Source: Hyphomicrobiales bacterium
GTDB lineage: Bacteria; Pseudomonadota; Alphaproteobacteria; Rhizobiales; JAKIUO01
DNA length: 35,064 bases
Reading direction: 5' to 3'
Assembly: GCA_027069645.1 (NCBI GenBank)
Contig: JALXEI010000341.1
Span: 1-35,064, forward strand
Below the pieces are notes generated by a model, which made no database searches, had not been told where the DNA came from, and saw only the letters and a program-made list of their open reading frames with translations. This document shows, one piece after another, positions 1,667-33,790 of the stretch. A program made the translations under genes and the position numbers. Every line of letters starts with the position of its first letter. Position 1 is the stretch's first letter.

Positions 1667-4081
1667 TTACCGGCCATTGCTCGCCGGATTTCGCAGTTTC
1701 GTGGCCTTTTTCAACAGTTCAACCGGCGCGACATACCAGTCGCCCGAGCCGGGAATGCGCCCTGGCACGAAGAAATAGAATTGACGCCCGCTCGCTCCGG
1801 TTCGGCTTCCGCCTGCTTCCTTGCGGCGCGTTTGCAACCCGGCTGTCCGGCCAACGCTGGCAGTTACGCCACGATTCCGGCCGACGGAACGGTTTGTGCC
1901 TGTGTTCGGGGCCGCCTTCAACTTCTCGCCGCCGGGGCGAACCGTGGTATAGACCCAGCGGTTCTGTTCACGTACCCAGACCATCTGTCGCCTGCCACGA
2001 CCCTTGCTTTCCGCATGACTGCCAATTGCAGAACGGGCGGGGGCGGGACCTTCGGCAAGCCCCGATTTTTCCCTGACCGTTGGCCCCGCTCCAGGGCCGC
2101 TTTTTTGCCTGTCCTGTTTCTTTCCTGCCCCGGATTTCCCCGCTACAGATGTCGCAGCCGTTTTCTTGCGGGCAACGGTGACGCCTGCGGTTGCCGATAC
2201 GCCTGACGTGGCCGCGTCGCCAGCCGGTTGCCGGTCTGTCCTTTTTGTCGTCTTTGCTGCCTTTACTGCCTTTGTACCGGTATCCGTGGCCTTTGCCATT
2301 TGCCGCGTTTTGCGGGCGGGTGATTTTTTCGGTGTCACATAAACCCAGCGCCCGTTACACTGCACCCAGCCACCGGTAGCCGGCGCCTTGCCGGCCTGAC
2401 GGACGCGCGTCCCCGCGCCTGACGTTCCGGCCCTGTCTTTCGCCGCCGCGCGCGGAACATAGACCCAGCGACCATTGATTTTCGACCAGGCGCCGTTTTT
2501 CACTGTTTTCACCTTGCCGACCGCACGGGATTTCGGATGCACCGTATTGCCAGCCGGACGTTGCACCGACCCTTTTGCCGCACGGGCCGCAGCCTTTTTC
2601 CGGTCTGGCGTTTTTCCGACCGGTTTCATGACCTTTCGCACACGCGCATCCGGCGTCGTTTTTCCGGTCTTTGCGCCAGCTTTTGCGGTGACCTTTGCAT
2701 TTGTCCCCTGCCCCTGCTCCCTGACAACAGACTGTTTCTCCCCGTCAGTTTCTGTTGTGGATTTGGCCGCTGCGGCCTTTTTCTTTTTGATCTCTCCCGA
2801 AGCAGTCTTTTTCTTTTGGACCTTGCGGTCGGTCATGCCCTTGAGGGTGGAACTGTAGGTCCTCGATTTATCAAAAACATAGACCCAGTTGCGACCGCGA
2901 CCGACCCAGCCATCAGCATTTTCGGAATTGCGTATCATATCGCCAAGCCCGTAAATTCCGGGGGCAACGCCGCGCCTGTATGGCGCATAAACCCAGCGGC
3001 CGTCCGTGCGCCCGGTTTCCCCTCGCGCCGTCATTTGTGCTGCCGTTAAACCGGTTTGACCAAATGCCCTGGCAAGAGGTGAGTCCCTGTCGGGAACCCA
3101 GAAATAGGTCCCCTTGTGATCGGAAGCCGTTTGTTTCCGGTTTTTTTTCACGCGTTCCGTACCAACAGCCGCCGCCACCCGACCGCTGACCGTCTTTTTC
3201 TTCACGGTTTCCCTGCGCGCCTTCTTCACGGCAATCGCACCGGTCCTGTCCACATGTTGCTTCCCTGAAAGCGCGGGCTTCCCGGAAACAACAGCCTGCT
3301 TCTTCATCACAGGCTGTTTGGCAACCGGTTTGTGCAAGGGGAGCGATTTCGACCGGATCGAGGGTTTTTGTTCAACCGTTTTTTTGCTCTCTGCGGATTT
3401 TCCGGGCTTCAAACCTGTCGCGCCGGACCGGACATGGCCTGCGGCCACTCTGTTTTTCGAATGCTTTTCATTCCCGTCTTTCTTCGGCAACCTCAATCGC
3501 TCTTTTTCTTGCGCTGCGTTAATCCTGCCCACAGCAACAGGGCTGTCCGGTTGTCTTGCCGCGGGGGCTGTAACAATCCGCTTTCCTTGCGCGGCCTCGT
3601 CAGCAGATTTCTCGCTTTTGGCCATCCCTTCCGCCCGATGATTCTTCGATTTGACCGGAGCCGGTGTTGAAGTAACAACTTTGGTGGCTGGCTTTACGCC
3701 CTTTACCGCTGGCATTTTTTTTGCCGCTTGCGAAGCCCTGGCATCGCTCCCGGGTTTTGTCACAACGGGTGCCACCGGTGCGGCCTTCACCTGTTTTTCA
3801 TGCGAAGCGGAACCGTCCTTCGTCTCTCGGGCTGCTTTTTTGCCCTCCGGATGCGGTACGGCCTGCGGCGCAGTTGTGGTCTTTTTTTCGGTTTCACCGA
3901 AGGGGGACCAGAAATATTTGCCAAGGCCGGACAATCCCTTGCGGATATTTTCAATAAATTGCCCCGGATTGCCATGATCATTTTCTGCCGCCTGCGCCAC
4001 AGGGGCCGCCAGAGACAGAAAGAACAGGGTAAACAGAAGAATTCCTCGCCCGCGGGCTTTTGAACTGGCAAACATTTTCAT
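1667..4081 (-). CDS. exported, extremely basic K/A/T/P/G-rich low-complexity protein with dispersed aromatic G-x-W-V-Y-V motifs (function unknown)
   Basis: Uninterrupted 2.4-kb ORF with an N-terminal signal peptide (MKMFASSKARGRGILLFTLFFLSLAAPVAQA/AE). Recurrent motifs are GTYFWVP, GRWVYAP, GWVGRGRNWVYVF, AWSKINGRWVYVP, GWVQCNGRWVYVTP, VWVREQNRWVYTT, QFYFFVP and DWYVAP. On the + strand these appear as cata[ag]acccag strings near 1948, 2338, 2458, 2878 and 2985. Confidence 0.75.
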   Translation of the reverse strand: MKMFASSKARGRGILLFTLFFLSLAAPVAQAAENDHGNPGQFIENIRKGLSGLGKYFWSPFGETEKKTTTAPQAVPHPEGKKAARETKDGSASHEKQVKAAPVAPVVTKPGSDARASQAAKKMPAVKGVKPATKVVTSTPAPVKSKNHRAEGMAKSEKSADEAAQGKRIVTAPAARQPDSPVAVGRINAAQEKERLRLPKKDGNEKHSKNRVAAGHVRSGATGLKPGKSAESKKTVEQKPSIRSKSLPLHKPVAKQPVMKKQAVVSGKPALSGKQHVDRTGAIAVKKARRETVKKKTVSGRVAAAVGTERVKKNRKQTASDHKGTYFWVPDRDSPLARAFGQTGLTAAQMTARGETGRTDGRWVYAPYRRGVAPGIYGLGDMIRNSENADGWVGRGRNWVYVFDKSRTYSSTLKGMTDRKVQKKKTASGEIKKKKAAAAKSTTETDGEKQSVVREQGQGTNAKVTAKAGAKTGKTTPDARVRKVMKPVGKTPDRKKAAARAAKGSVQRPAGNTVHPKSRAVGKVKTVKNGAWSKINGRWVYVPRAAAKDRAGTSGAGTRVRQAGKAPATGGWVQCNGRWVYVTPKKSPARKTRQMAKATDTGTKAVKAAKTTKRTDRQPAGDAATSGVSATAGVTVARKKTAATSVAGKSGAGKKQDRQKSGPGAGPTVREKSGLAEGPAPARSAIGSHAESKGRGRRQMVWVREQNRWVYTTVRPGGEKLKAAPNTGTNRSVGRNRGVTASVGRTAGLQTRRKEAGGSRTGASGRQFYFFVPGRIPGSGDWYVAPVELLKKATKLRNPASNGR

Positions 4082-12667: not shown

Positions 12668-14683
12668 ATGAACAAACAGAACGACTCGCCCCGCAAACCG
12701 GCCTTTCGCAATGACATCCAGGGACTGCGCGGTGTAGCGATTATTGCCGTCCTGCTGTTTCATTTCCGGTTTGGCGGTGCCAGTGGCGGTTTTCTCGGTG
12801 TTGATATCTTTTTTGTCATATCCGGCTTTTTGATCACCACAATTCTGCAAAAAAATACCGACCGGCCCTTCTCCCGCAACCTGCTGACTTTTTATGGCAA
12901 ACGCTTCTGGCGCATCTTTCCCGCCTGTATTGTTGTTATACTCGCTAGTCTTGCCGCGGGCTGGCTGATCCTCCTTCCCGAAGATCTCGCCCGTCTTGGT
13001 CGCTCATCCATTTTCTCGGCGCTGTTTGCTTCCGATTTTTTCTTCTTTGGCGAGGCGGGCTATTTTGACCTCTCGGGGATTTTCAAACCCCTGCTGCATA
13101 CCTGGTCGCTGGCGGTTGAAATGCAGTTTTATGCGATCTGGCCCTTTTTGCTGTTGTGGTTCTCTTCAACAGGGAAACTTTCTCTCACAAAGGCTCTGGT
13201 CCTGTTTTTCATACTGATGTTTGCGGGCAGTACGGCGCTGTCCATCGGAGATCCCGAAAACGCCTTTTTCATGATGTATTCACGCTTGTGGGAATTTGCT
13301 GCCGGGGCCATTGTCGCACTCGCGCTTTCTCGCAGACCGCCATGCTCTTCAACGGTTCTCGCCGGTCTTTTCGGCTGGCTCGCAATGATCCTGCTGATCA
13401 TATCGTTTTTCACCGTCAGCAATGATATGCTGCTCCCGGCACCCGGTGCCCTGCTCGCCGTTCTGGCGACGGCAGGACTGATCGGGCTGGGGTCGGCAAG
13501 TCCCGCGACATTCCGGCTGTTATCCTTCCCCCCGCTGGTGTGGATCGGCGAGATTTCCTACAGCCTCTATCTCGTTCACTGGCCGTTGATCGTCTATATA
13601 AGCTATCTGCTTTATCCGCAGCCCTCGTTTGCAACGCGTGCTCTGGCGCTTGCAGCCTGCCTGCCCCTCGCCTTTTTGCTTTACCGGTTTGTCGAGGTGC
13701 CCTTTCGCGACCGCGGCAAAAAGCAGCCCTTTGCTCCTGTGCTGGTCGGCACCGCGATTGCTACGCTGGCCTTTGTCCTGATCACCGGTCAGTTTGTCCT
13801 TGTCAGAGACGGCGTTCCCGAACGATTTGCAGCCCCCACACTGGCGGCCCTCGACAGGATTGAACCACACCCCGGCCCGCAAGTTAAATGGCAGGGGGGA
13901 GAAACGCTGCCTGTAACATCCCCGAAAATTGTTCTCTGGGGCGATTCACACGCCCTGCATTTTAAAAACACACTCGCGCGCGAGGCGAGTGCCGCCGGAT
14001 ACCGGTTGCAAACCCTCGCCGCCCCGAGTTGTCCGCCCATATACGGTGTCTATCTCAAGCGTCATACCCTTTCCATCGCCAAGGGCTGTTATCGCAAAAA
14101 CCGGAAGGCCCTCTATTCCATTCTTCGCAATCCTCACATCGCTATTGTGATCCTCGCCGCGCGCTGGTCTTTTTATGCCGAAACCCGTCGTTTTGGCGGC
14201 GAGGCCGGGGGGCGGGCCTTCCTCACTGACAGCAAATGGGCAGCGGTCTCCGTGTCCCGAAGCCGCAGCCATTTTGCTGGCGGCCTGCGCAACACCGTTC
14301 AACGACTGGTTGACAGTGGCAAACGCGTCATTCTGCTGGGACAGGTGCCCGAATTCGGCTTTGATCCGCCCCGCTGCATCAAGATGAGCCTTGTCAGCGG
14401 CATTGGCAGGGAGGTCTGTACGATTTCCATCGCGAAAATGCGCCAGCGGCAGAAATTTGCAGAGCAAGTCATGGAGAAGATTGCTTCTGCCAGTTCAAAG
14501 GTGCGTTTTTTTCGCACCAGCGGCCCGTTTTGCAATAATTCAGTCTGCTCGCCACTGGTTTCCGGGCAAATCGCCTACAGCGATGATGATCACATCAATC
14601 CGACGGGTGCCGATACGGCCTTGCAAAATCTGCGGCTGCCACACGCCGGAGCGGTCATCCCTGTTTCCGATAGGTCCCCATGA
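12668..14683 (+). CDS. acyltransferase family 3 (OafA-like) membrane protein with C-terminal SGNH-type domain
   Basis: The motif RNDIQGLRGVAIIAVLLFHF is followed by about 10 hydrophobic segments. The C-terminal soluble domain carries VLWGDSHALH. The start was moved to ATG 12668 (MNKQND...); the frame is open from 12494. Confidence 0.85.
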   Translation: MNKQNDSPRKPAFRNDIQGLRGVAIIAVLLFHFRFGGASGGFLGVDIFFVISGFLITTILQKNTDRPFSRNLLTFYGKRFWRIFPACIVVILASLAAGWLILLPEDLARLGRSSIFSALFASDFFFFGEAGYFDLSGIFKPLLHTWSLAVEMQFYAIWPFLLLWFSSTGKLSLTKALVLFFILMFAGSTALSIGDPENAFFMMYSRLWEFAAGAIVALALSRRPPCSSTVLAGLFGWLAMILLIISFFTVSNDMLLPAPGALLAVLATAGLIGLGSASPATFRLLSFPPLVWIGEISYSLYLVHWPLIVYISYLLYPQPSFATRALALAACLPLAFLLYRFVEVPFRDRGKKQPFAPVLVGTAIATLAFVLITGQFVLVRDGVPERFAAPTLAALDRIEPHPGPQVKWQGGETLPVTSPKIVLWGDSHALHFKNTLAREASAAGYRLQTLAAPSCPPIYGVYLKRHTLSIAKGCYRKNRKALYSILRNPHIAIVILAARWSFYAETRRFGGEAGGRAFLTDSKWAAVSVSRSRSHFAGGLRNTVQRLVDSGKRVILLGQVPEFGFDPPRCIKMSLVSGIGREVCTISIAKMRQRQKFAEQVMEKIASASSKVRFFRTSGPFCNNSVCSPLVSGQIAYSDDDHINPTGADTALQNLRLPHAGAVIPVSDRSP

Positions 14684-15131
14684 GAACCGTCTGTGCCAGT
14701 TCATGCCCTTCGATCGCCGCCAGCAGCCGGTCCTTTGTCGGTTCGCCAAGATCGTCAAGAACCACGTCGAGCGCGTAAAGCTTGAAGAAATAGCGGTGGC
14801 GACCAATGGGCGGACAGGGACCGCCCCAGCCGGTACGGTTCCAGTCATTAAGACCCTCCTTTGTCCCTGCGGGCAGAGCTTCCGGGGATATGTTTTCGAT
14901 CAGTCCGGTGCTGTCGGCAGGCAGGTTGTAAAGCACCCAGTGCACATAAACCATTTTTGGTGCCTCGGGGTCGGGGGCATCCGGATCATCGACAATCAGC
15001 GCAAAACTCTTCGTACCGGCCGGAGCGCCGCTCCACGCCAGTTGTGGTGAAAAATCCTTGCCCTCACAGGTAAATTCGCGTGGTATCTCACCCTCATGGG
15101 CAAAATCTGTGGATGTAATAACAAAAGCCAT
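14655..15131 (-). CDS. YbhB/YbcL (PEBP, Raf-kinase-inhibitor-like) family protein
   Basis: 158 aa with FTCEGKDFSPQLAWSGAP...LIVDDPDAP...HWVLYN...GPCPPIGRHRYFFKLYALD, the classical bacterial PEBP signature. RBS ggggaggaa. Confidence 0.85.
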   Translation of the reverse strand: MAFVITSTDFAHEGEIPREFTCEGKDFSPQLAWSGAPAGTKSFALIVDDPDAPDPEAPKMVYVHWVLYNLPADSTGLIENISPEALPAGTKEGLNDWNRTGWGGPCPPIGRHRYFFKLYALDVVLDDLGEPTKDRLLAAIEGHELAQTVLMGTYRKQG

Positions 15132-15178
15132 CTGTTCCTCCCCTGGCGGTCTGCGAAATGGTGAGAAATGCGGGCATA

Positions 15179-17017
15179 TCAGTAAACCCGCTTTTTGGGT
15201 TTGATATATTCCACCTCGTTTGTCATCGTATAGGCGTGCACCGGACGATCACCGGCTTTCACCTCGCGCTTTTGCGCGTCGATCCAGTGCAGGGAATGTT
15301 TCATCCAGTTTTCATCGTCCCGTTCGGGATAATCCTCGCGGGCATGGGCACCGCGACTTTCCAGACGCCCGGCGGCGCCGGTCATGGTGGTGACGGCCTG
15401 AAGGATGAGATTTTCATATTCAAGGCTTTCAATGAGATCCGTGTTCCAGATCAGCGAACGGTCCGTGACCTTTATATCCTCGCCCTGCTCCCAGACCTTG
15501 CGCAGCAGTGCCTGTCCTTCTTCCAGCACCTCGCCTGTACGGAACACGGCGCAATTGTTCTGCATGACCTTTTGCATATCAAGACGCAACTTCGCTGTAG
15601 GCGTGCCGCCATCGGCATGACGCAAACGGTCCAGTCGCTCCAGCGCCAGTGCCCCGGCATTGCGGGGCAAATCGGCATGTTTGCCATGTGGTTCAAGCTG
15701 GGCGATGCAGCGCTCGGCCGTGGCCCGGCCAAACACCACAAGGTCAATCAGCGAGTTGGAGCCCAGCCGATTGGCCCCGTGCACGGAAACACAGGCGGCT
15801 TCGCCCACCGCCATCAAACCGGGACAAATGGCATCCGGGTCACCGTTTTTGGCCGAAATGACCTCGCCGTGGAAATTGGTCGGAATCCCGCCCATATTGT
15901 AATGCGCCGTGGGGATCACCGGAATGGGATCGCGCGTCACGTCTACACCGGCAAAAATGCGTGAACTCTCGGAAATACCGGGTAGCCGCTCATGGATAAT
16001 GGCCGGGTCGAGATGATCGAGATGCAAAAAGATATGATCTTTTTCCGGACCGACGCCGCGCCCTTCACGGATTTCAATGGTCATCGCCCGGCTGACCACA
16101 TCGCGCGAGGCCAGATCCTTTGCAGTTGGCGCGTAGCGCTCCATGAAACGCTCGCCCTCGCTATTGGTGAGATAGCCGCCCTCGCCGCGCACCCCTTCGG
16201 TGATCAGCATCCCCGCGCCATAAATGCCGGTGGGATGAAACTGCACAAATTCCATATCCTGCAAGGGCAGCCCGGCCCTGAGCACCATTGCATTACCATC
16301 GCCGGTGCAGGTATGGGCCGAGGTGCAGGAGAAATAGGTACGGCCATAGCCGCCGGTGGCCAGAATGGTGCGATGGGCGCGGAAGCGATGCAGGGAGCCG
16401 TCCTCAAGGCAAAGGGCGATAACGCCGCGACAGGCGCCCTCGTCATCCATGATCAGGTCAATGGCAAAATATTCGATAAAGAATTCGGCCTGATGGCGCA
16501 GCGACTGACCATAAAGCGTGTGCAAAATGGCGTGTCCCGTACGGTCGGCGGCGGCGCAGGTGCGCATGGCGGGCGGCCCCTCGCCAAATTCGGTGGTCAT
16601 GCCGCCAAACGGGCGCTGATAGATCTTGCCCTCGTCATTGCGCGAAAACGGTACGCCATAATGTTCCAGTTCGTAAACCGCGGCAGGCGCCTCGCGGCAC
16701 AGATATTCGATTGAGTCCTGATCTCCCAGCCAGTCGGAGCCCTTGACCGTATCATACATGTGCCAGCGCCAGTCATCCGGCCCCATATTGCCAAGCGACG
16801 CCGCCACGCCGCCCTGGGCCGCAACGGTATGGGAGCGCGTCGGAAAAACCTTGGTAATGCAGCCCGTGCGCAACCCCGCTTCCGAAGCGCCAAGCGTTGC
16901 CCGCAAACCGGCTCCGCCCGCGCCCACCACCAGCACGTCAAAATCGTGATCCACAAAATCATAAACGCCGGGTCTGGCATAAGCCGCGTTCACGCCATTA
17001 TTGTTATTGTCTGCCAT
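15179..17017 (-). CDS. sdhA: succinate dehydrogenase flavoprotein subunit
   Basis: FAD-binding [14 protein letters not shown], the SHTVAAQGG histidyl-FAD site, and conserved HPTG and RLGSNSL segments along the full length. The start is ATG 17017 (GTG 17020 is also in frame). Confidence 0.95.
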
Positions 17018-17061
17018 CACATCCGCCTTTTATTTTATGCTGCCATACGCGCCGCTCACAG

Positions 17062-17230
17062 CTCACACTGCCAACTCTCTGCAATATGGATCCCCGCCTG
17101 CGCGGGGATGACACAGGGGGGACCCCCTGAAAAACAGACAATCCTCGCACTTCACTGTCCTTCACGCTCCCACTGTCACCCTTGCGCTCCCATTGTCATC
17201 CCCGCGAAGGCGGGGATCCATATTCCAGAG
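17062..17230. repeat. palindromic mini-element copy A (27-bp TIRs at 17087-17113 and 17194-17220)
   Basis: tggatccccgcctgcgcggggatgaca and tgtcatccccgcgaaggcggggatcca are reverse complements at 26 of 27 positions. Each TIR holds a ccccgc-N4-gcgggg hairpin. The left 89 bp differ from copy B at 5 positions. Confidence 0.85.
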
Positions 17231-17259
17231 AACTCGTAATTGTAAAACAAACTTCCCAC

Positions 17260-17559
17260 CTACAAATCCCAATCACAGGACAAATCCGACCAATCCGGGT
17301 TATCCTCCTCGATCAATTTTATCTTCCAGTCGCGATTCCATTTTTTCAATCTTTTCTCGCGCAGGATTGCCTCACCGATTTCCTGATGCACTTCATACCA
17401 CACCAGCCTGTGAACCCCGTATTTCGCCGTAAAGCCTTCAATGACGCCTTCCTTGTGTTCCCACACCCGTCGCAATAAATTGCTGGTCACACCAATATAA
17501 ATCGTCCCGTGTTTTGAGCTGGCGAGCATATAGACATAATACTGTTTTTCACCGTTCAT
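17260..17559 (-). CDS. small stand-alone GIY-YIG nuclease family protein (UPF0213/YhbQ-like)
   Basis: YYVYMLASSKHGTIYIGVTSNLLRRVWEHK...REKRLKKWNRDWKIKLIEEDNPDW shows the GIY...YIG, Arg and Glu signature of the about 100-aa GIY-YIG family. The start is ATG 17559 (GTG 17562 is in frame). Confidence 0.85.
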   Translation of the reverse strand: MNGEKQYYVYMLASSKHGTIYIGVTSNLLRRVWEHKEGVIEGFTAKYGVHRLVWYEVHQEIGEAILREKRLKKWNRDWKIKLIEEDNPDWSDLSCDWDL

Positions 17560-17560
17560 C

Positions 17561-17728
17561 ACTCACACCGCCAACTCTCTGCAATATGGATCCCCGCCTG
17601 CGCGGGGATGACACAGGAGGGACCTCCTGAACAACAGACAATCCTCACACCTCCACAGTCATCCCGCACTTCACTACCCTTCACGCTCCCACTGTCATTC
17701 CCGCGCAGGCGGGGATCCATACGCAGAG
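17561..17728. repeat. palindromic mini-element copy B (27-bp TIRs at 17587-17613 and 17693-17719)
   Basis: It has the same orientation and architecture as copy A, and its TIRs match at 26 of 27 positions. It begins 1-2 nt upstream of the GIY-YIG start codon. Confidence 0.85.
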
Positions 17729-17774
17729 TCCTCTCGTACGCATCCTCACTGCCACAGCACATGGAAAAGCTGGT

Positions 17775-18077
17775 TCATTCCTCGACCTTACAACCGGTTA
17801 GGGCGCAAACAGTATGCACAAATGCGAATAAAACCTGTTCATCCGAAAGATCACAATAAATAGGAAAGTCAGTCGAATTTCCTGCGGGATTACCTTCTTC
17901 ATTACACCGAACAACATTCAGATACCGTACAGTCCCTGCCCAATCTTTTTCCTTGGGTCTATGCTGAACCCACGCTCTTTTTTCCCATCCATCTGGAGGT
18001 TGCGTCCACTGAATGTAATAACTGCCATTTGAATCTCTCTGAATTTCCAAGTCCACTCTCCTTATCTCTCCCCTCAA
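17775..18077 (-). CDS. hypothetical small protein (91-100 aa), AT-rich, no ATG start
   Basis: The ORF has no Met codon at all. Candidate starts are TTG 18077 (overlapping the upstream stop), GTG 18056 or TTG 18050. A strong SD (taaggaga) lies 7 nt before TTG 18050. It is visibly AT-richer than its neighbours. I recognise no family. Confidence 0.45.
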   Translation of the reverse strand: MRGEIRRVDLEIQRDSNGSYYIQWTQPPDGWEKRAWVQHRPKEKDWAGTVRYLNVVRCNEEGNPAGNSTDFPIYCDLSDEQVLFAFVHTVCALTGCKVEE

Positions 18078-18736
18078 TGCCGCGCTGTCCCCTGCAAATC
18101 CTTGTATGGGGCAAACGCTTCCATCCCCCGCCAGTCGGGCAGGGCCTGATCGAGGAAGTCGATCATTTGCGTCTGTTTTTCGGGGTTGGGCTTTTCCGTC
18201 GTTTCCTGCAACACTTCGAGATAATATTCCTCATCCGTTTGAAGCGCCCTGATGAAATCATCGAAATGCAGCGCCAGCGTCACCCAGGCGTTGGCTTCGG
18301 GCTGGTCTTCAAGGTCGGGGATGCCGTGGATGAAGGCGACAACACGATCCTCGCCGGTCTGCTCGAAATCGGTAAGGTCAAGATAAAGCTCGCAGCCCGA
18401 ATTATCCCGCGCGATGGGCAGTACCTGCGGCGGCAGTTGTGCGGCTTCGCGCGACAGTTTCAACTCGTGCTCAAATGTTCCGAAAGGCGAGCTTTCCAGC
18501 CGTCGCTTTGTACCGTAAAGCAGGGAAAAACTGCGCGGCACTTTCATGTCGGGGTGATCGACCTCGATATAATAACCATCCAGATTGCCGCCATTGGCAA
18601 CCTGCAAAAACTGTTTGTAGGCGTCGGGCAATTTTGTTTGCAGCTCTTTTTCCAGCGCCTCGATTTCCCCTTCGGCGGGCGCACCAAGAAAATCCCTGAT
18701 GATGATATTGCCAAATTTTGTATAGGTCGCACCCAT
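18074..18736 (-). CDS. SMI1/KNR4 (SUKH-1) family protein, immunity-protein-like
   Basis: Its N-terminal region IEALEKELQTKLPDAYKQFLQVANGG is the hallmark SMI1/KNR4 motif (LPxxYxxFLxxxNGG), and it is about 220 aa long. The ATG lies 2 nt after the sdhD TGA, with GGAGG inside the sdhD 3' end. Confidence 0.75.
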   Translation of the reverse strand: MGATYTKFGNIIIRDFLGAPAEGEIEALEKELQTKLPDAYKQFLQVANGGNLDGYYIEVDHPDMKVPRSFSLLYGTKRRLESSPFGTFEHELKLSREAAQLPPQVLPIARDNSGCELYLDLTDFEQTGEDRVVAFIHGIPDLEDQPEANAWVTLALHFDDFIRALQTDEEYYLEVLQETTEKPNPEKQTQMIDFLDQALPDWRGMEAFAPYKDLQGTARH

Positions 18737-19131: not shown

Positions 19132-19539
19132 TTATAGATGTCCGCGCGCCCAGTAGGCGAGGAACCAGACGAGAATGGTCAGCAACACCGAACCGATCAG
19201 CGTCCCCCATGCCAGTATGTCCAGGGTCTTTTTCTCAAACCCGGCGCCGGTATCCCACAAAAGATGACGCATGCCGCCCAGCATGTGATGAATCAGCGCC
19301 CAGCTGTAGCCCAGCAGAATGAAGCGTCCGATATTTGAGCCGAAAAAACCGTTGACCTCGTTGAAATAGCGCTCGCTCGACGCCGCAGCGATCAGCCACC
19401 AGGCGAGCAGAAATGTGCCGAAATAGAGCACCGCGCCGGATATGCGATGGGCAATCGACATCATCATGGTCATGGTAAAGCGATAGATTTGCAGGTGAGG
19501 CGAAAGCGGACGGTCTGCCGGATTGCGATATTTTGCCAT
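19132..19539 (-). CDS. sdhC: succinate dehydrogenase cytochrome b556 subunit
   Basis: 135 aa with RPLSPHLQIYRF...SIAHRISG...HHMLGGMRHLLWD, the heme-ligand context typical of SdhC. Confidence 0.9.
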   Translation of the reverse strand: MAKYRNPADRPLSPHLQIYRFTMTMMMSIAHRISGAVLYFGTFLLAWWLIAAASSERYFNEVNGFFGSNIGRFILLGYSWALIHHMLGGMRHLLWDTGAGFEKKTLDILAWGTLIGSVLLTILVWFLAYWARGHL

Positions 19540-19658: not shown

Positions 19659-20300
19659 TCACTGCGGTGGCTTGCCGGAAGAGGCTTTCTTCGGTGCCGC
19701 CGGGTTGCCCGAGAAACCGCGACTGGACCTGGAGCCGATGACAGATTGCTGTCCTGGTGCATTCCCCCTGTCGGCCCGGGTGCGGAAGGTATCATTATAA
19801 CAGCGCATCATATGGCGACAACGCATGACGCCGGGGGGGTGGCGACGATTGCCCGGAAGGTGCCGGATAAAGGAACAGGCCTGCTTCAACCCCTTGCGAT
19901 TCATGAGACCTTCACGGCGCACCTTCTGCACGGCCCAGCAATCCGCCGCCAGTTCGCTGCCACCAACATACTGGTGCGCACATTCGTGATAATAGATCAG
20001 CAATTTGGCGCCGCGGGGCAAATTGCGCAGCCGGCGCGGATTGAGAATGATCAGCCCGCGGCGGGCGGCCCCGTAATCGGGATAGCTCCCGGAAACAAGC
20101 GCCGGTATTGTCCCGCATTTGACAACAAAGCCGTCGATCATCAGTTGTCCGGGTCTGATCAGCTTGCGGGCCGGTGCAGCGCCGAGCGGGGCTATCAGCG
20201 GCAAGAACCCCAATCCGGCCACCATGACAGCGCACAGAAACGGCTGCAAAAATGTCAGCCCGTTCAATTTTTGCTCACCTCGTCGAAAGCGCTTCAACAC
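19659..20300 (-). CDS. hypothetical exported protein with HExxH motif
   Basis: It has an N-terminal hydrophobic signal-like segment (LTFLQPFLCAVMVAGLGFLPLIAPLGA), an internal YYHECAHQY (HExxH) motif and a Cys-rich C-terminal half. It was preferred over the overlapping + strand ORF 19635-20489. Confidence 0.5.
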   Translation of the reverse strand: MLKRFRRGEQKLNGLTFLQPFLCAVMVAGLGFLPLIAPLGAAPARKLIRPGQLMIDGFVVKCGTIPALVSGSYPDYGAARRGLIILNPRRLRNLPRGAKLLIYYHECAHQYVGGSELAADCWAVQKVRREGLMNRKGLKQACSFIRHLPGNRRHPPGVMRCRHMMRCYNDTFRTRADRGNAPGQQSVIGSRSSRGFSGNPAAPKKASSGKPPQ

Positions 20301-32178: not shown

Positions 32179-32284
32179 GAAAACTCGCCTTGAATCATAA
32201 AAAAGCCCCAAACCAGCGTAGTTACGCGGTTTTTTGTCTTTTTGTCTTAATGAAACTGTTACACTAACCTGTTACACTTTCGGG

Positions 32285-33790
32285 ATGAAAGACATGAAAT
32301 TCCCCTATCTGGTAAAGCGCACCGACTCCCGTAAATGGTATCTGCGAATACCTGTCCCCGATGATTTGCATCATGTGTTTGGCAGACATGACAAATGTAA
32401 GAGTCTGCGAACAGAGGACAGAAAAGAAGCCGAACGCCTCTATTTTTCTCATCCCTTCGTTGCCGAATGGAAGGAAAAGTTTGAAGATGCAAGATTAGGC
32501 CGTCCTACAGGTTCAACATATGACAAGCTGAAACGCGAACGCTTGAAGCGTTTTCGAGCGGCTAAAAAAGACATATTCGAGTATGCTGATGAACACAGCG
32601 CATGGATTGATCCAGATTTTGCTTATACACACCCCGACGTGCACAATGAAAAACAGATTGTCGGTGATACTGAAAACGCGATAGCCCGCAAGAAGATTGC
32701 ACAGCTTTACCAGGACAAGGCTGTCGGGGTTGTCGATGCCAGAGAGGCAGATAAGCAGATTGAGGCGTTGCAACATCTGATTGCTGGCACTGTGCCAAAG
32801 AATGAACCTGAAGTCTCTTCCCTGCCCTCTCTGTTGAAAGTGCTTCCATATTATTATGCAGAATTCAAGACAACAGTTTCAAAACCAACATACAGAAAGA
32901 AAAAGCCGCATGTTGACTTATTCATCAAATGGGTAAAGGACAAACCCATAGATCAATATAGCCTGAAAGATGGGAATGATTTTCTTGAACGCCTGAAAAA
33001 GAAGCAGGCGAGGGGGAAAGCAAAGGGGCAGACATTAAGCCCGAACGCTATCAATGCTTACATGATTTCGGTTACTCAATTGTTCGACTGGTTACAGAAA
33101 AGATACGGGGATGCTGTTGTAAACCCTGCAAAAACAATTCGCGTGCCAGAAAAGAAGCCGATAAACACAAAAAAACCGCGTACTTCATTCACTACAGATG
33201 AATTAAACAAGCTGTTCCAGGTAGTAAAACCAGATCACCCGTTGTTTTGGGCTGCGCTGATTCCTTTATATTCGAGTATGCGTGTACAGGCGACATGCCA
33301 ACTTCGCAAACGCGATATAAAAAAGCGCGACGGAATATATTACTTTGATGTGCATGACAGGGGGGAAAACAAGCTCAAAAATCCAGGTGCGACAAGGGAA
33401 ATACCAGTCCACAAACGGCTTATTGAATTGGGACTGTTGGAATATATGGCGTCGGTAGAGGATTATCTTTTCCCGTCTATAGCTGACGGTGCAAGAGAAT
33501 ATCCAAACGGACACGACAGATGGGCTGATAGATTGGGATTGGCTTTCGCCAAACTGTTGAAGCAGGCGAAAATAAAGAGAAAGGAAATAACTTTCACTTC
33601 CCTTCGTCATACACATGTGGACGCTTCCCGGGAAGCCGGAATGAGCTATTCAGCCGCGTGCTGGATTCAGGGAAGGAAGGAAAACAGCTCTATGGCCAAT
33701 TATGGAGAATGGCGCGACCTGAAACGGCGTAAATTTGAGTTGGACAAGATTGAATATGATTTTGTATTGTCTCCACACAACGGCAAATAA
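32285..33790 (+). CDS. tyrosine-type site-specific integrase
   Basis: N-terminal KWYLRIPVPDDL-type arm-binding region. The C-terminal catalytic region has SMRVQATCQLRKRDI (Arg I), FTSLRHTHV (H-x-x-R region) and SSMANYG (catalytic Tyr). The start is ATG 32285; the frame is open from 32234. Confidence 0.85.
   Translation: MKDMKFPYLVKRTDSRKWYLRIPVPDDLHHVFGRHDKCKSLRTEDRKEAERLYFSHPFVAEWKEKFEDARLGRPTGSTYDKLKRERLKRFRAAKKDIFEYADEHSAWIDPDFAYTHPDVHNEKQIVGDTENAIARKKIAQLYQDKAVGVVDAREADKQIEALQHLIAGTVPKNEPEVSSLPSLLKVLPYYYAEFKTTVSKPTYRKKKPHVDLFIKWVKDKPIDQYSLKDGNDFLERLKKKQARGKAKGQTLSPNAINAYMISVTQLFDWLQKRYGDAVVNPAKTIRVPEKKPINTKKPRTSFTTDELNKLFQVVKPDHPLFWAALIPLYSSMRVQATCQLRKRDIKKRDGIYYFDVHDRGENKLKNPGATREIPVHKRLIELGLLEYMASVEDYLFPSIADGAREYPNGHDRWADRLGLAFAKLLKQAKIKRKEITFTSLRHTHVDASREAGMSYSAACWIQGRKENSSMANYGEWRDLKRRKFELDKIEYDFVLSPHNGK

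Follow-up and report, generated by a model that had tools for sequence, protein, structure and literature searches.

Within a 35,064-nucleotide (nt) stretch of a Hyphomicrobiales bacterium genome (GenBank assembly GCA_027069645.1, contig JALXEI010000341.1; this whole stretch is referred to here as the window), the succinate dehydrogenase (Sdh, complex II) genes sdhC and sdhD are followed on the same strand by the gene of a 220-amino-acid (aa) protein of the SUKH-1 (SMI1/KNR4) type, and it is this SUKH gene, rather than sdhA, that directly adjoins sdhD (Table 1). The junction between the two reads TTTGGAGGCTGAttATGGGT: the ATG of the SUKH gene lies 2 nt after the TGA of sdhD, and a GGAGG Shine-Dalgarno sequence is located 6 nt upstream of that ATG, within sdhD, exactly as described in a first-pass annotation of this DNA. 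Two sigma-70-like promoter matches (19622-19595 and 19821-19794) occur upstream of sdhC, and a terminator scan from sdhD to sdhA returned nothing above chance. The start of sdhA lies approximately 1.05 kb from the SUKH stop codon, displaced by inserted cargo that includes a small open reading frame (ORF) and a GIY-YIG nuclease gene. Searches of the large ORFs against Pfam and NCBIfam detected no toxin, Rhs, CdiA or type VI secretion system gene in the window, in agreement with what the annotation had reported.

The product of the 220-codon ORF (18074-18736, minus strand) is a true member of the SUKH-1/SMI1_KNR4 family by profile and has a SUKH fold by structural model. It contains KLPDAYKQFLQVANGG, and its residues 22-163 match the SMI1_KNR4 profile (PF09346) at 62.1 bits (E 1e-16; the Pfam cut-off is 25.4), alongside Pfam matches to SUKH_6 (51.6 bits) and SUKH_5. 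An AlphaFold2 (AF2) model built from 32 orthologues reached a mean predicted local distance difference test (pLDDT) score of 89.1, and its top PDB matches in Foldseek were 2icg, YobK (2prv), 3d5p, FBXO3 and Knr4, each with a probability of at least 0.9; the RhsPI immunity protein was also among the matches. Template modeling (TM) scores were modest (0.35-0.46 on the query) because the protein carries extra C-terminal helices: in the model, a core of approximately residues 1-165 is followed by a three-helix extension (approximately 165-220), and the protein ends in a conserved ...LQGTARH tail. The first-pass annotation had assigned this ORF to SMI1/KNR4 from its signature and had proposed profile and fold searches as a check, both of which bear the assignment out. 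The protein is acidic (pI 4.5). No match to the Syd family was returned by Pfam (E limit 1) or by a profile search of PDB (E limit 10), and none is among the Foldseek matches listed; nor did the protein show similarity to Sdh5/SdhE, Complex1_LYR or SDHAF4 (DUF1674), Pfam at E up to 1 having returned SUKH families only.

The placement of this gene behind sdhCD is a lineage feature of one uncultured Hyphomicrobiales group and not a one-off. The metagenomic loci used for comparison were retrieved through contig look-ups, from seven species genomes of GTDB and from four contigs of JGI; the organisms are named as metagenome-assembled genomes of Hyphomicrobiaceae, Hyphomicrobiales or Alphaproteobacteria. 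The protein database holds approximately 34 cluster representatives of the SUKH clade, at 54-100% identity and with nearly all full-length ones measuring 220-222 aa; beyond this tight clade, the next matches have 42% identity or less. The adjacency of sdhD and SUKH recurs in about 18 related loci (L001-L004, L010-L015, L017-L022 and L026-L027), with sdhC preceding wherever the contig reaches that far, and it is seen at every locus that encodes a SUKH protein of at least 63% identity and has enough upstream sequence. The next gene after SUKH is usually sdhA, at a distance of 37-141 nt in loci without cargo. In 12 related loci and the window, the gap between sdhD and SUKH is only 2-8 nt and the SUKH start is often TTG, which points to translational coupling of SUKH to sdhD. 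The trio sdhCD-SUKH is kept even where the surroundings differ, as in L003 (SdhC 65% identical) and L015 (60%), and SUKH still lies by sdhCD in L010 and L015, in which no sdhA follows within the available 4.9 and 6.0 kb. Co-inheritance of SUKH with the sdh structural genes, together with their predicted co-transcription, is thus conserved, the exceptions being a sister clade (L016 and L024) and distant members of the family. Because the closest relatives share much of their local gene order in any case, a conserved position among them carries only partial information. In one sub-clade (L011-L014 and L020), an insert of 64-123 nt separates sdhD from SUKH; in L012 (5878-6000) it is a tandem duplication of an approximately 60-nt unit (GAGCACAATCTGAAAAGTGGGAACCGGTTTTT...), and this insert, also present in L013, L014 and L020, breaks the tight coupling seen elsewhere.

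The SUKH gene evolves as the sdh genes do. Pairwise distances between SUKH proteins correlate with those between SdhC proteins at r 0.86-0.91 and with those between SdhA proteins at r 0.94-0.96, and the Sdh subunits correlate no better among themselves (r 0.73-0.94). Ratios of nonsynonymous to synonymous divergence (dN/dS, Nei-Gojobori) relative to the window were 0.06-0.19 for SUKH, 0.08-0.26 for sdhC, 0.03-0.11 for sdhD and 0.02-0.09 for sdhA, values that are approximate because dS is near saturation for most pairs (proportion of synonymous differences, pS, 0.55-0.78) and that could not be computed for L005, L016 and L018. The GC content at third codon positions (GC3) of SUKH is 0.64, compared to 0.66-0.70 for sdhC, sdhD and sdhA, and PLSDB contains no plasmid copy of the gene. 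An alignment of 32 sequences from the clade has a mean column identity of 81% and 73 invariant columns, which include the extreme C-terminal ...LQGTARH. These analyses show a gene that is vertically inherited, fixed in position, under purifying selection of sdhC-like strength and host-like in composition.

These properties are the reverse of those described for bacterial SUKH immunity genes, which undergo lateral transfer, form lineage-specific expansions and paralogue arrays, and are linked to nuclease toxins (PMC3113570), and whose orphan versions are mobile, reside in recombinase-associated arrays and experience positive selection at the interface (PMC12247911). The comparative data rule out that the gene confers cognate immunity in linkage with a toxin gene, and equally that it is a mobile cassette for orphan immunity. 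Cognate immunity to a polymorphic toxin fails because the gene upstream of SUKH, in the window as in the roughly 18 related loci, is sdhD and neither a toxin gene nor an orphan toxin cassette, and no toxin gene occurs in the annotated neighborhoods of the relatives' SUKH loci. An orphan immunity array of the recombinase-associated acquired interbacterial defense (rAID) or AID type fails because the SUKH gene is single-copy at a fixed chromosomal site, with neither a paralogue array nor a recombinase next to it, and combines co-divergence and low dN/dS with the absence of plasmid copies. With the SUKH-1 immunity proteins (YobK of B. subtilis, RhsPI and the Bacteroidales I2 orphan immunity proteins in rAID), the window protein shares the PF09346 family, the fold and a small, acidic, cytoplasmic character; it differs from them in lacking an adjacent toxin gene, a paralogue array and a recombinase, in its vertical descent under purifying selection as opposed to horizontal transfer and diversification, in its C-terminal three-helix extension and in its position within a core respiratory operon.

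What could survive of an immunity function is an orphan gene that was fixed long ago, that rides the sdh promoter for constitutive expression and that protects against a nuclease or other polymorphic toxin, either widespread where the lineage lives or encoded elsewhere in the genome, without any relation to Sdh. For the great majority of bacterial SUKH-1 proteins, a role in toxin immunity has been predicted or demonstrated (PMC3113570; PMC12247911), YobK and RhsPI are among the structural neighbors of the window protein, and the protein is acidic and has a weak PADLOC candidate match (PDC-M40A, 1.6e-5). Moreover, the family has relatives outside sdh operons, and the junction of sdhD and sdhA gathers conflict-type cargo: the GIY-YIG gene, a small ORF of a kind found in defense islands, and other ORFs in L011 and L013. 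Against these points stand the lack of a toxin gene in the window and in the annotated neighborhoods of the relatives, the single copy, the strict co-divergence with Sdh genes and the host-like composition, and we regard a long-fixed immunity gene as the main rival to the reading favored below, if a rather unlikely one. The proposal of the first-pass annotation that this is an orphan immunity gene expressed from a constitutive operon is weakened by the same observations of vertical inheritance, purifying selection and composition, as well as by the lack of a plasmid match.

Table 1. Features from sdhC to sdhA, in order of transcription (positions are those of the window).
Feature	Position	Strand	Basis
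sdhC, succinate dehydrogenase cytochrome b556 subunit, first operon gene	19132..19539	-	Pfam Sdh_cyt 3.3e-31
sdhD, membrane anchor subunit; GGAGG Shine-Dalgarno for SUKH gene in final codons	18739..19119	-	Pfam Sdh_cyt 1.2e-17
SUKH-1 (SMI1/KNR4) protein, 220 aa, conserved operon-resident component	18074..18736	-	Pfam, AF2, Foldseek, synteny
Small ORF, 91 aa, TTG start, AAGGAG 7 nt upstream, strain-specific	17775..18050	-	Homologue starts, GC3
Palindromic element like a miniature inverted-repeat transposable element (MITE), copy B; terminal inverted repeats ATGGATCCCCGCCTGCGCGGGGATGACA / TGTCATTCCCGCGCAGGCGGGGATCCAT	17552..17721		Repeat detection
Stand-alone GIY-YIG nuclease-domain protein, 100 aa, MITE copy on either side	17260..17562	-	Pfam GIY-YIG 2.8e-15
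MITE-like palindromic element, copy A; 86-92% identical to copy B	17052..17231		Repeat detection
sdhA, flavoprotein subunit	15179..17020	-	ORF and translation; 86-91% identity to relatives' sdhA

Downstream of SUKH, the first-pass annotation had recognized a 100-codon, AT-rich ORF that opens at a TTG overlapping the SUKH TGA (18077..17775) and is preceded by a Shine-Dalgarno sequence. The overlap and the AT-richness (GC 0.435, GC3 0.337) hold, but the start and the length do not: the Shine-Dalgarno AAGGAG lies inside the 100-codon ORF and precedes a second TTG, at 18050, by 7 nt, and all nine of the homologues compared (54-71% identity) begin at the position of that second TTG (MEIQRDGNG...), such that the true gene is the shorter, 91-aa one. 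Moreover, the TTG that overlaps the SUKH stop belongs to GGCATTGAGG, a string that is conserved in relatives without the small ORF, and the overlap is hence incidental. The small ORF occurs in none of the approximately 18 related sdhD-SUKH loci, not even in those whose SUKH protein is 89-91% identical (L021 and L022), and the DNA of the window ceases to be homologous to that of its relatives about 6 nt past the SUKH stop codon. A GC3 of 0.34 argues for recent acquisition.

Homologues of the small ORF form a family whose 165 representatives (clustered at 50%) include 96 with an E-value of 1e-10 or better. The family has no match in Pfam, NCBIfam, PADLOC or PHROGs and none in phages. The structure prediction and fold search that the annotation had proposed for this ORF yielded a confident AF2 model (pLDDT 89; five beta-strands and a C-terminal helix) but no significant structural neighbor in PDB or BFVD (Foldseek; the best match was the PC4/Sub1 fold 4bhm, E 0.26). 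One homologue, P0049, is fused to an XRE helix-turn-helix domain, and it is this part alone, contributed by P0049, that was matched in a PDB profile search with the family. Other homologues adjoin HicB or HicA, occur near a RelE/XRE pair, or reside in an island with a resolvase, a type ISP restriction enzyme and Cas2. A further, unannotated homologue of 42% identity (L028) is located on a conjugative plasmid of Sinorhizobium americanum (NZ_CP013053.1, 530128-530412), just downstream of a DUF262 and SIR2 pair, a neighborhood that suggests the family belongs to defense islands. None of the homologue contexts examined contained a SUKH gene beside the small ORF. The small ORF is a recently acquired member of an unannotated family typical of defense, toxin-antitoxin and plasmid islands, and it has no SUKH partner.

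These results bear directly on the idea, advanced by the first-pass annotation, that SUKH and the small ORF constitute an orphan immunity pair or a two-gene module, either toxin/immunity-like or acting on Sdh. Within the window, the two genes are indeed adjacent and share a strand, and a strong Shine-Dalgarno sequence precedes the small ORF. However, the lack of co-occurrence in either direction, the abrupt end of DNA homology behind SUKH and the difference in GC3 between the two genes have largely refuted the two-gene model, and as a pair the genes are ruled out by comparative synteny. Action on Sdh, the annotation's other suggestion, may still hold for the SUKH gene by itself.

The same conclusion emerges from the spacer between SUKH and sdhA, which is a recurrent insertion hotspot within an essential operon. 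In the window (17021-18073), it holds the small ORF followed by the GIY-YIG gene with a MITE-like element on either side; in L013 (6663-8110), two other ORFs and a GIY-YIG gene; in L018 (1089-1620), a GIY-YIG gene as the only cargo gene; and in L017 (1903-2299), unrelated DNA. In L011 (6663-7196), another ORF and a GIY-YIG gene lie downstream of SUKH in a locus that ends before any sdhA. That the small ORF sits beside SUKH is accounted for by insertion into this hotspot, adjacency being a by-product, and the practical lesson is that gene adjacency seen in a single genome can be an insertion-hotspot artefact.

A variant of the two-gene model would have SUKH neutralize the GIY-YIG protein. GIY-YIG is a nuclease fold, SUKH proteins are generally linked to nuclease toxins (PMC3113570), and a GIY-YIG gene lies downstream of SUKH in three relatives, in two of which (L013 and L018) it is between SUKH and sdhA. 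However, GIY-YIG genes are absent from most loci, variable cargo intervenes between them and SUKH, and the window copy is bracketed by MITE-like elements; as a cognate nuclease of SUKH, the GIY-YIG protein was rejected on these grounds. We consider a two-gene module, in this or its original form, highly improbable.

The two MITE-like elements, each of approximately 170 nt, are found nowhere else in the window. They have terminal inverted repeats of 29-43 nt with the core GATCCCCGCCTGCGCGGGGATGAC, and either copy can form a long hairpin with a stem of about 35 bp (free energy, dG, -103 kcal/mol; z -5.7). Rfam returned only below-threshold look-alikes of miRNA precursors in the spacer, and these are due to the MITE hairpins. 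Fragments of the element also occur in the short SUKH-sdhA spacers of L018, L021 and L022, and the elements might serve in the processing or stability of the mRNA between SUKH and sdhA.

SUKH domains are protein-binding scaffolds with an alpha+beta fold, in which an N-terminal beta-hairpin, conserved helices and a four-stranded meander create a cleft. Among eukaryotes, SUKH proteins of vertical descent have housekeeping roles, as opposed to the bacterial immunity versions, which are prone to horizontal transfer (PMC3113570). The reading that we favor, and hold tentatively, is that the window protein is likewise a domesticated adaptor whose partner is endogenous and would most plausibly be the Sdh complex, on which it would act much as Syd acts on SecY. 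The SUKH gene would have entered the junction between sdhD and sdhA in an ancestor of this uncultured, Hyphomicrobiaceae-like lineage of Hyphomicrobiales and then been fixed as a member of the operon. Given the gap of 2-8 nt, the frequent TTG start and the Shine-Dalgarno sequence inside sdhD, ribosomes leaving sdhD would translate SUKH, and the protein would be made together with the membrane-anchor subunits. It would then bind an endogenous cytoplasmic partner and not an incoming polymorphic toxin, the candidates being SdhCD, on its cytoplasmic face, and SdhA or SdhB prior to assembly, and would serve as an assembly, quality-control or regulatory adaptor. The small ORF landed in the SUKH-sdhA spacer independently, alongside the MITE-flanked GIY-YIG gene. 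An adaptor role is supported by the predicted synthesis of the protein in step with SdhC and SdhD, by the vertical descent of its gene under purifying selection, by the retention of SUKH next to sdhCD in the two loci whose available sequence shows no sdhA behind it, and by the strongly conserved surface tail.

A narrower version of this proposal, which we put forward with considerable doubt, is that the SUKH-1 protein is a lineage-specific accessory factor of complex II, in which an immunity-type scaffold would dock onto SdhCD or onto unassembled SdhA or SdhB and function as either an assembly checkpoint or a fifth subunit. A precedent is Syd of E. coli, a founding member of the SUKH superfamily, whose charged cleft binds the cytoplasmic face of SecY and which proof-reads the assembly of SecYEG (PMC3113570). 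Like the role proposed here for SUKH on SdhCD, Syd (SUKH-2) acts on a housekeeping membrane complex, but the proposed analogy is functional only, the window protein belonging to the SUKH-1 group and not to the Syd-like group. The syd gene is not known to be part of the secY operon.

Complex II has dedicated assembly factors, namely SdhE/SDHAF2, the LYR proteins SDHAF1 and SDHAF3, and SDHAF4, all of which are small soluble proteins that engage Sdh subunits during assembly (PMC10238741). The window protein has no sequence similarity to any of these. We know of none among them that has a SUKH fold. SdhE (YgfY/CptB) was first described as an antitoxin, and it provides a precedent for a conflict-like protein that is in fact an Sdh factor. 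Supernumerary complex II subunits occur in plants and trypanosomatids, and mycobacteria have SdhF. Similarly, the Tetrahymena complex contains lineage-specific extra proteins, SDHTT1-11, together with canonical SdhABCD (PMC10238741). Expression of SUKH from the sdh operon would fit such a fifth subunit. To our knowledge, no SUKH-domain subunit of complex II has been described.

Several observations weigh against an adaptor dedicated to Sdh. We infer the contact between SUKH and Sdh, and the identity of the partner is a prediction. Because the junction is an insertion hotspot, SUKH could simply be its oldest passenger, one that stayed. The acidic pI suits a nuclease-immunity protein as well as it does a Syd-like binder, and there is no similarity to known Sdh assembly factors (Pfam at E up to 1). 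In L015, sdhD and SUKH are 852 nt apart, with a small glycine-rich ORF between them. The wider family of approximately 215-aa proteins has the same core motifs and C-terminal extension but no sdh neighbor in the three contexts seen, and in the sister clade, at 49-54% identity, SUKH follows the gene of a DUF3365-like c-type heme protein instead of sdhD. The sister-clade loci are L016 (1335-3000) and L024 (1-1410, with a gap of 9 nt), and the upstream heme protein has a CxxCH motif. Both upstream hosts of the SUKH family, sdhD and the DUF3365-like gene, thus encode heme or respiratory proteins, which may or may not be a coincidence.

This wider family comprises at least 266 proteins at 30-40% identity, with named members from Planctomycetes (including Pirellulaceae) and Burkholderiales, and raises the alternative that SUKH is a general cytoplasmic adaptor or regulator, comparable to the eukaryotic Smi1/Knr4 and FBXO3, whose partner is neither Sdh nor a toxin and whose place in the operon reflects historical accident and inertia. 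The uniformity of the family, which extends over Planctomycetes, Burkholderiales and Alphaproteobacteria in unrelated neighborhoods, would suit such a role, as would the absence of domain fusions among the 120 matches listed (all single-domain proteins of approximately 200-250 aa), the position of the sister clade behind another gene and the limited information that position carries among closely related, highly syntenic genomes. However, inertia does not readily explain why the coupling to sdhD at 2-8 nt persists where the surrounding synteny has been lost (L003), or why L010 and L015 retain SUKH by sdhCD without an sdhA behind it in the available sequence, and we judge a partner other than Sdh or a toxin to be unlikely.

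An operon-embedded, vertically inherited SUKH clade appears to have been undescribed so far. A full-text literature search, in which the word-start "SUKH" mostly matched author names, found no report in which SUKH or KNR4 proteins are connected to sdh operons or to complex II, consistent with the view of the first-pass annotation that this arrangement had not been described before. Bacterial SUKH proteins are usually annotated as toxin immunity, and yet this one behaves like a housekeeping gene across an uncultured lineage. If the adaptor we favor does bind Sdh, it would represent a new class of complex II accessory factor and a bacterial case of a domesticated immunity scaffold: a counterpart, in the respiratory chain, of the interaction between Syd and SecY, in which a fold from conflict systems was recruited into core metabolism. 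Even if it does not bind Sdh, the locus illustrates that an essential operon can take in a gene of foreign origin for good, and that the junction it occupies still takes up mobile cargo (GIY-YIG genes, MITEs and defense-island ORFs) without the destruction of sdhA expression.

Among the large ORFs of the window, Pfam and NCBIfam detected no sdhB, and none follows sdhA there (14655-17020) or in any relative. The gene after sdhA instead differs from locus to locus, being a PEBP-family gene in the window (Pfam), MsrAB in L001, a CcdAB toxin-antitoxin pair in L002, a KAP NTPase gene in L003 and the gene of a leucine-rich repeat (LRR) protein in L021, such that the canonical sdhCDAB operon is fragmented in this lineage.

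Upstream of sdhC lies a 213-aa ORF (19659-20300, minus strand) without a Pfam or NCBIfam match, which is kept at this position in most relatives whose contigs reach there, including L003 despite its otherwise different neighborhood. Its product has a hydrophobic N-terminus and a HECAH (HExxH-like) motif, and may be a secreted metalloprotease-like protein. An 804-aa ORF (1667-4081, minus strand), likewise without a Pfam or NCBIfam match, has a signal-peptide-like start and a lysine/alanine-rich low-complexity body with repeated NGRWVY-like motifs. A tyrosine integrase that carries a DUF6538 domain at its N-terminus (32234-33790) is encoded close to the end of the window, where it adjoins a polysaccharide-synthesis cluster and may mark the border of a genomic island.

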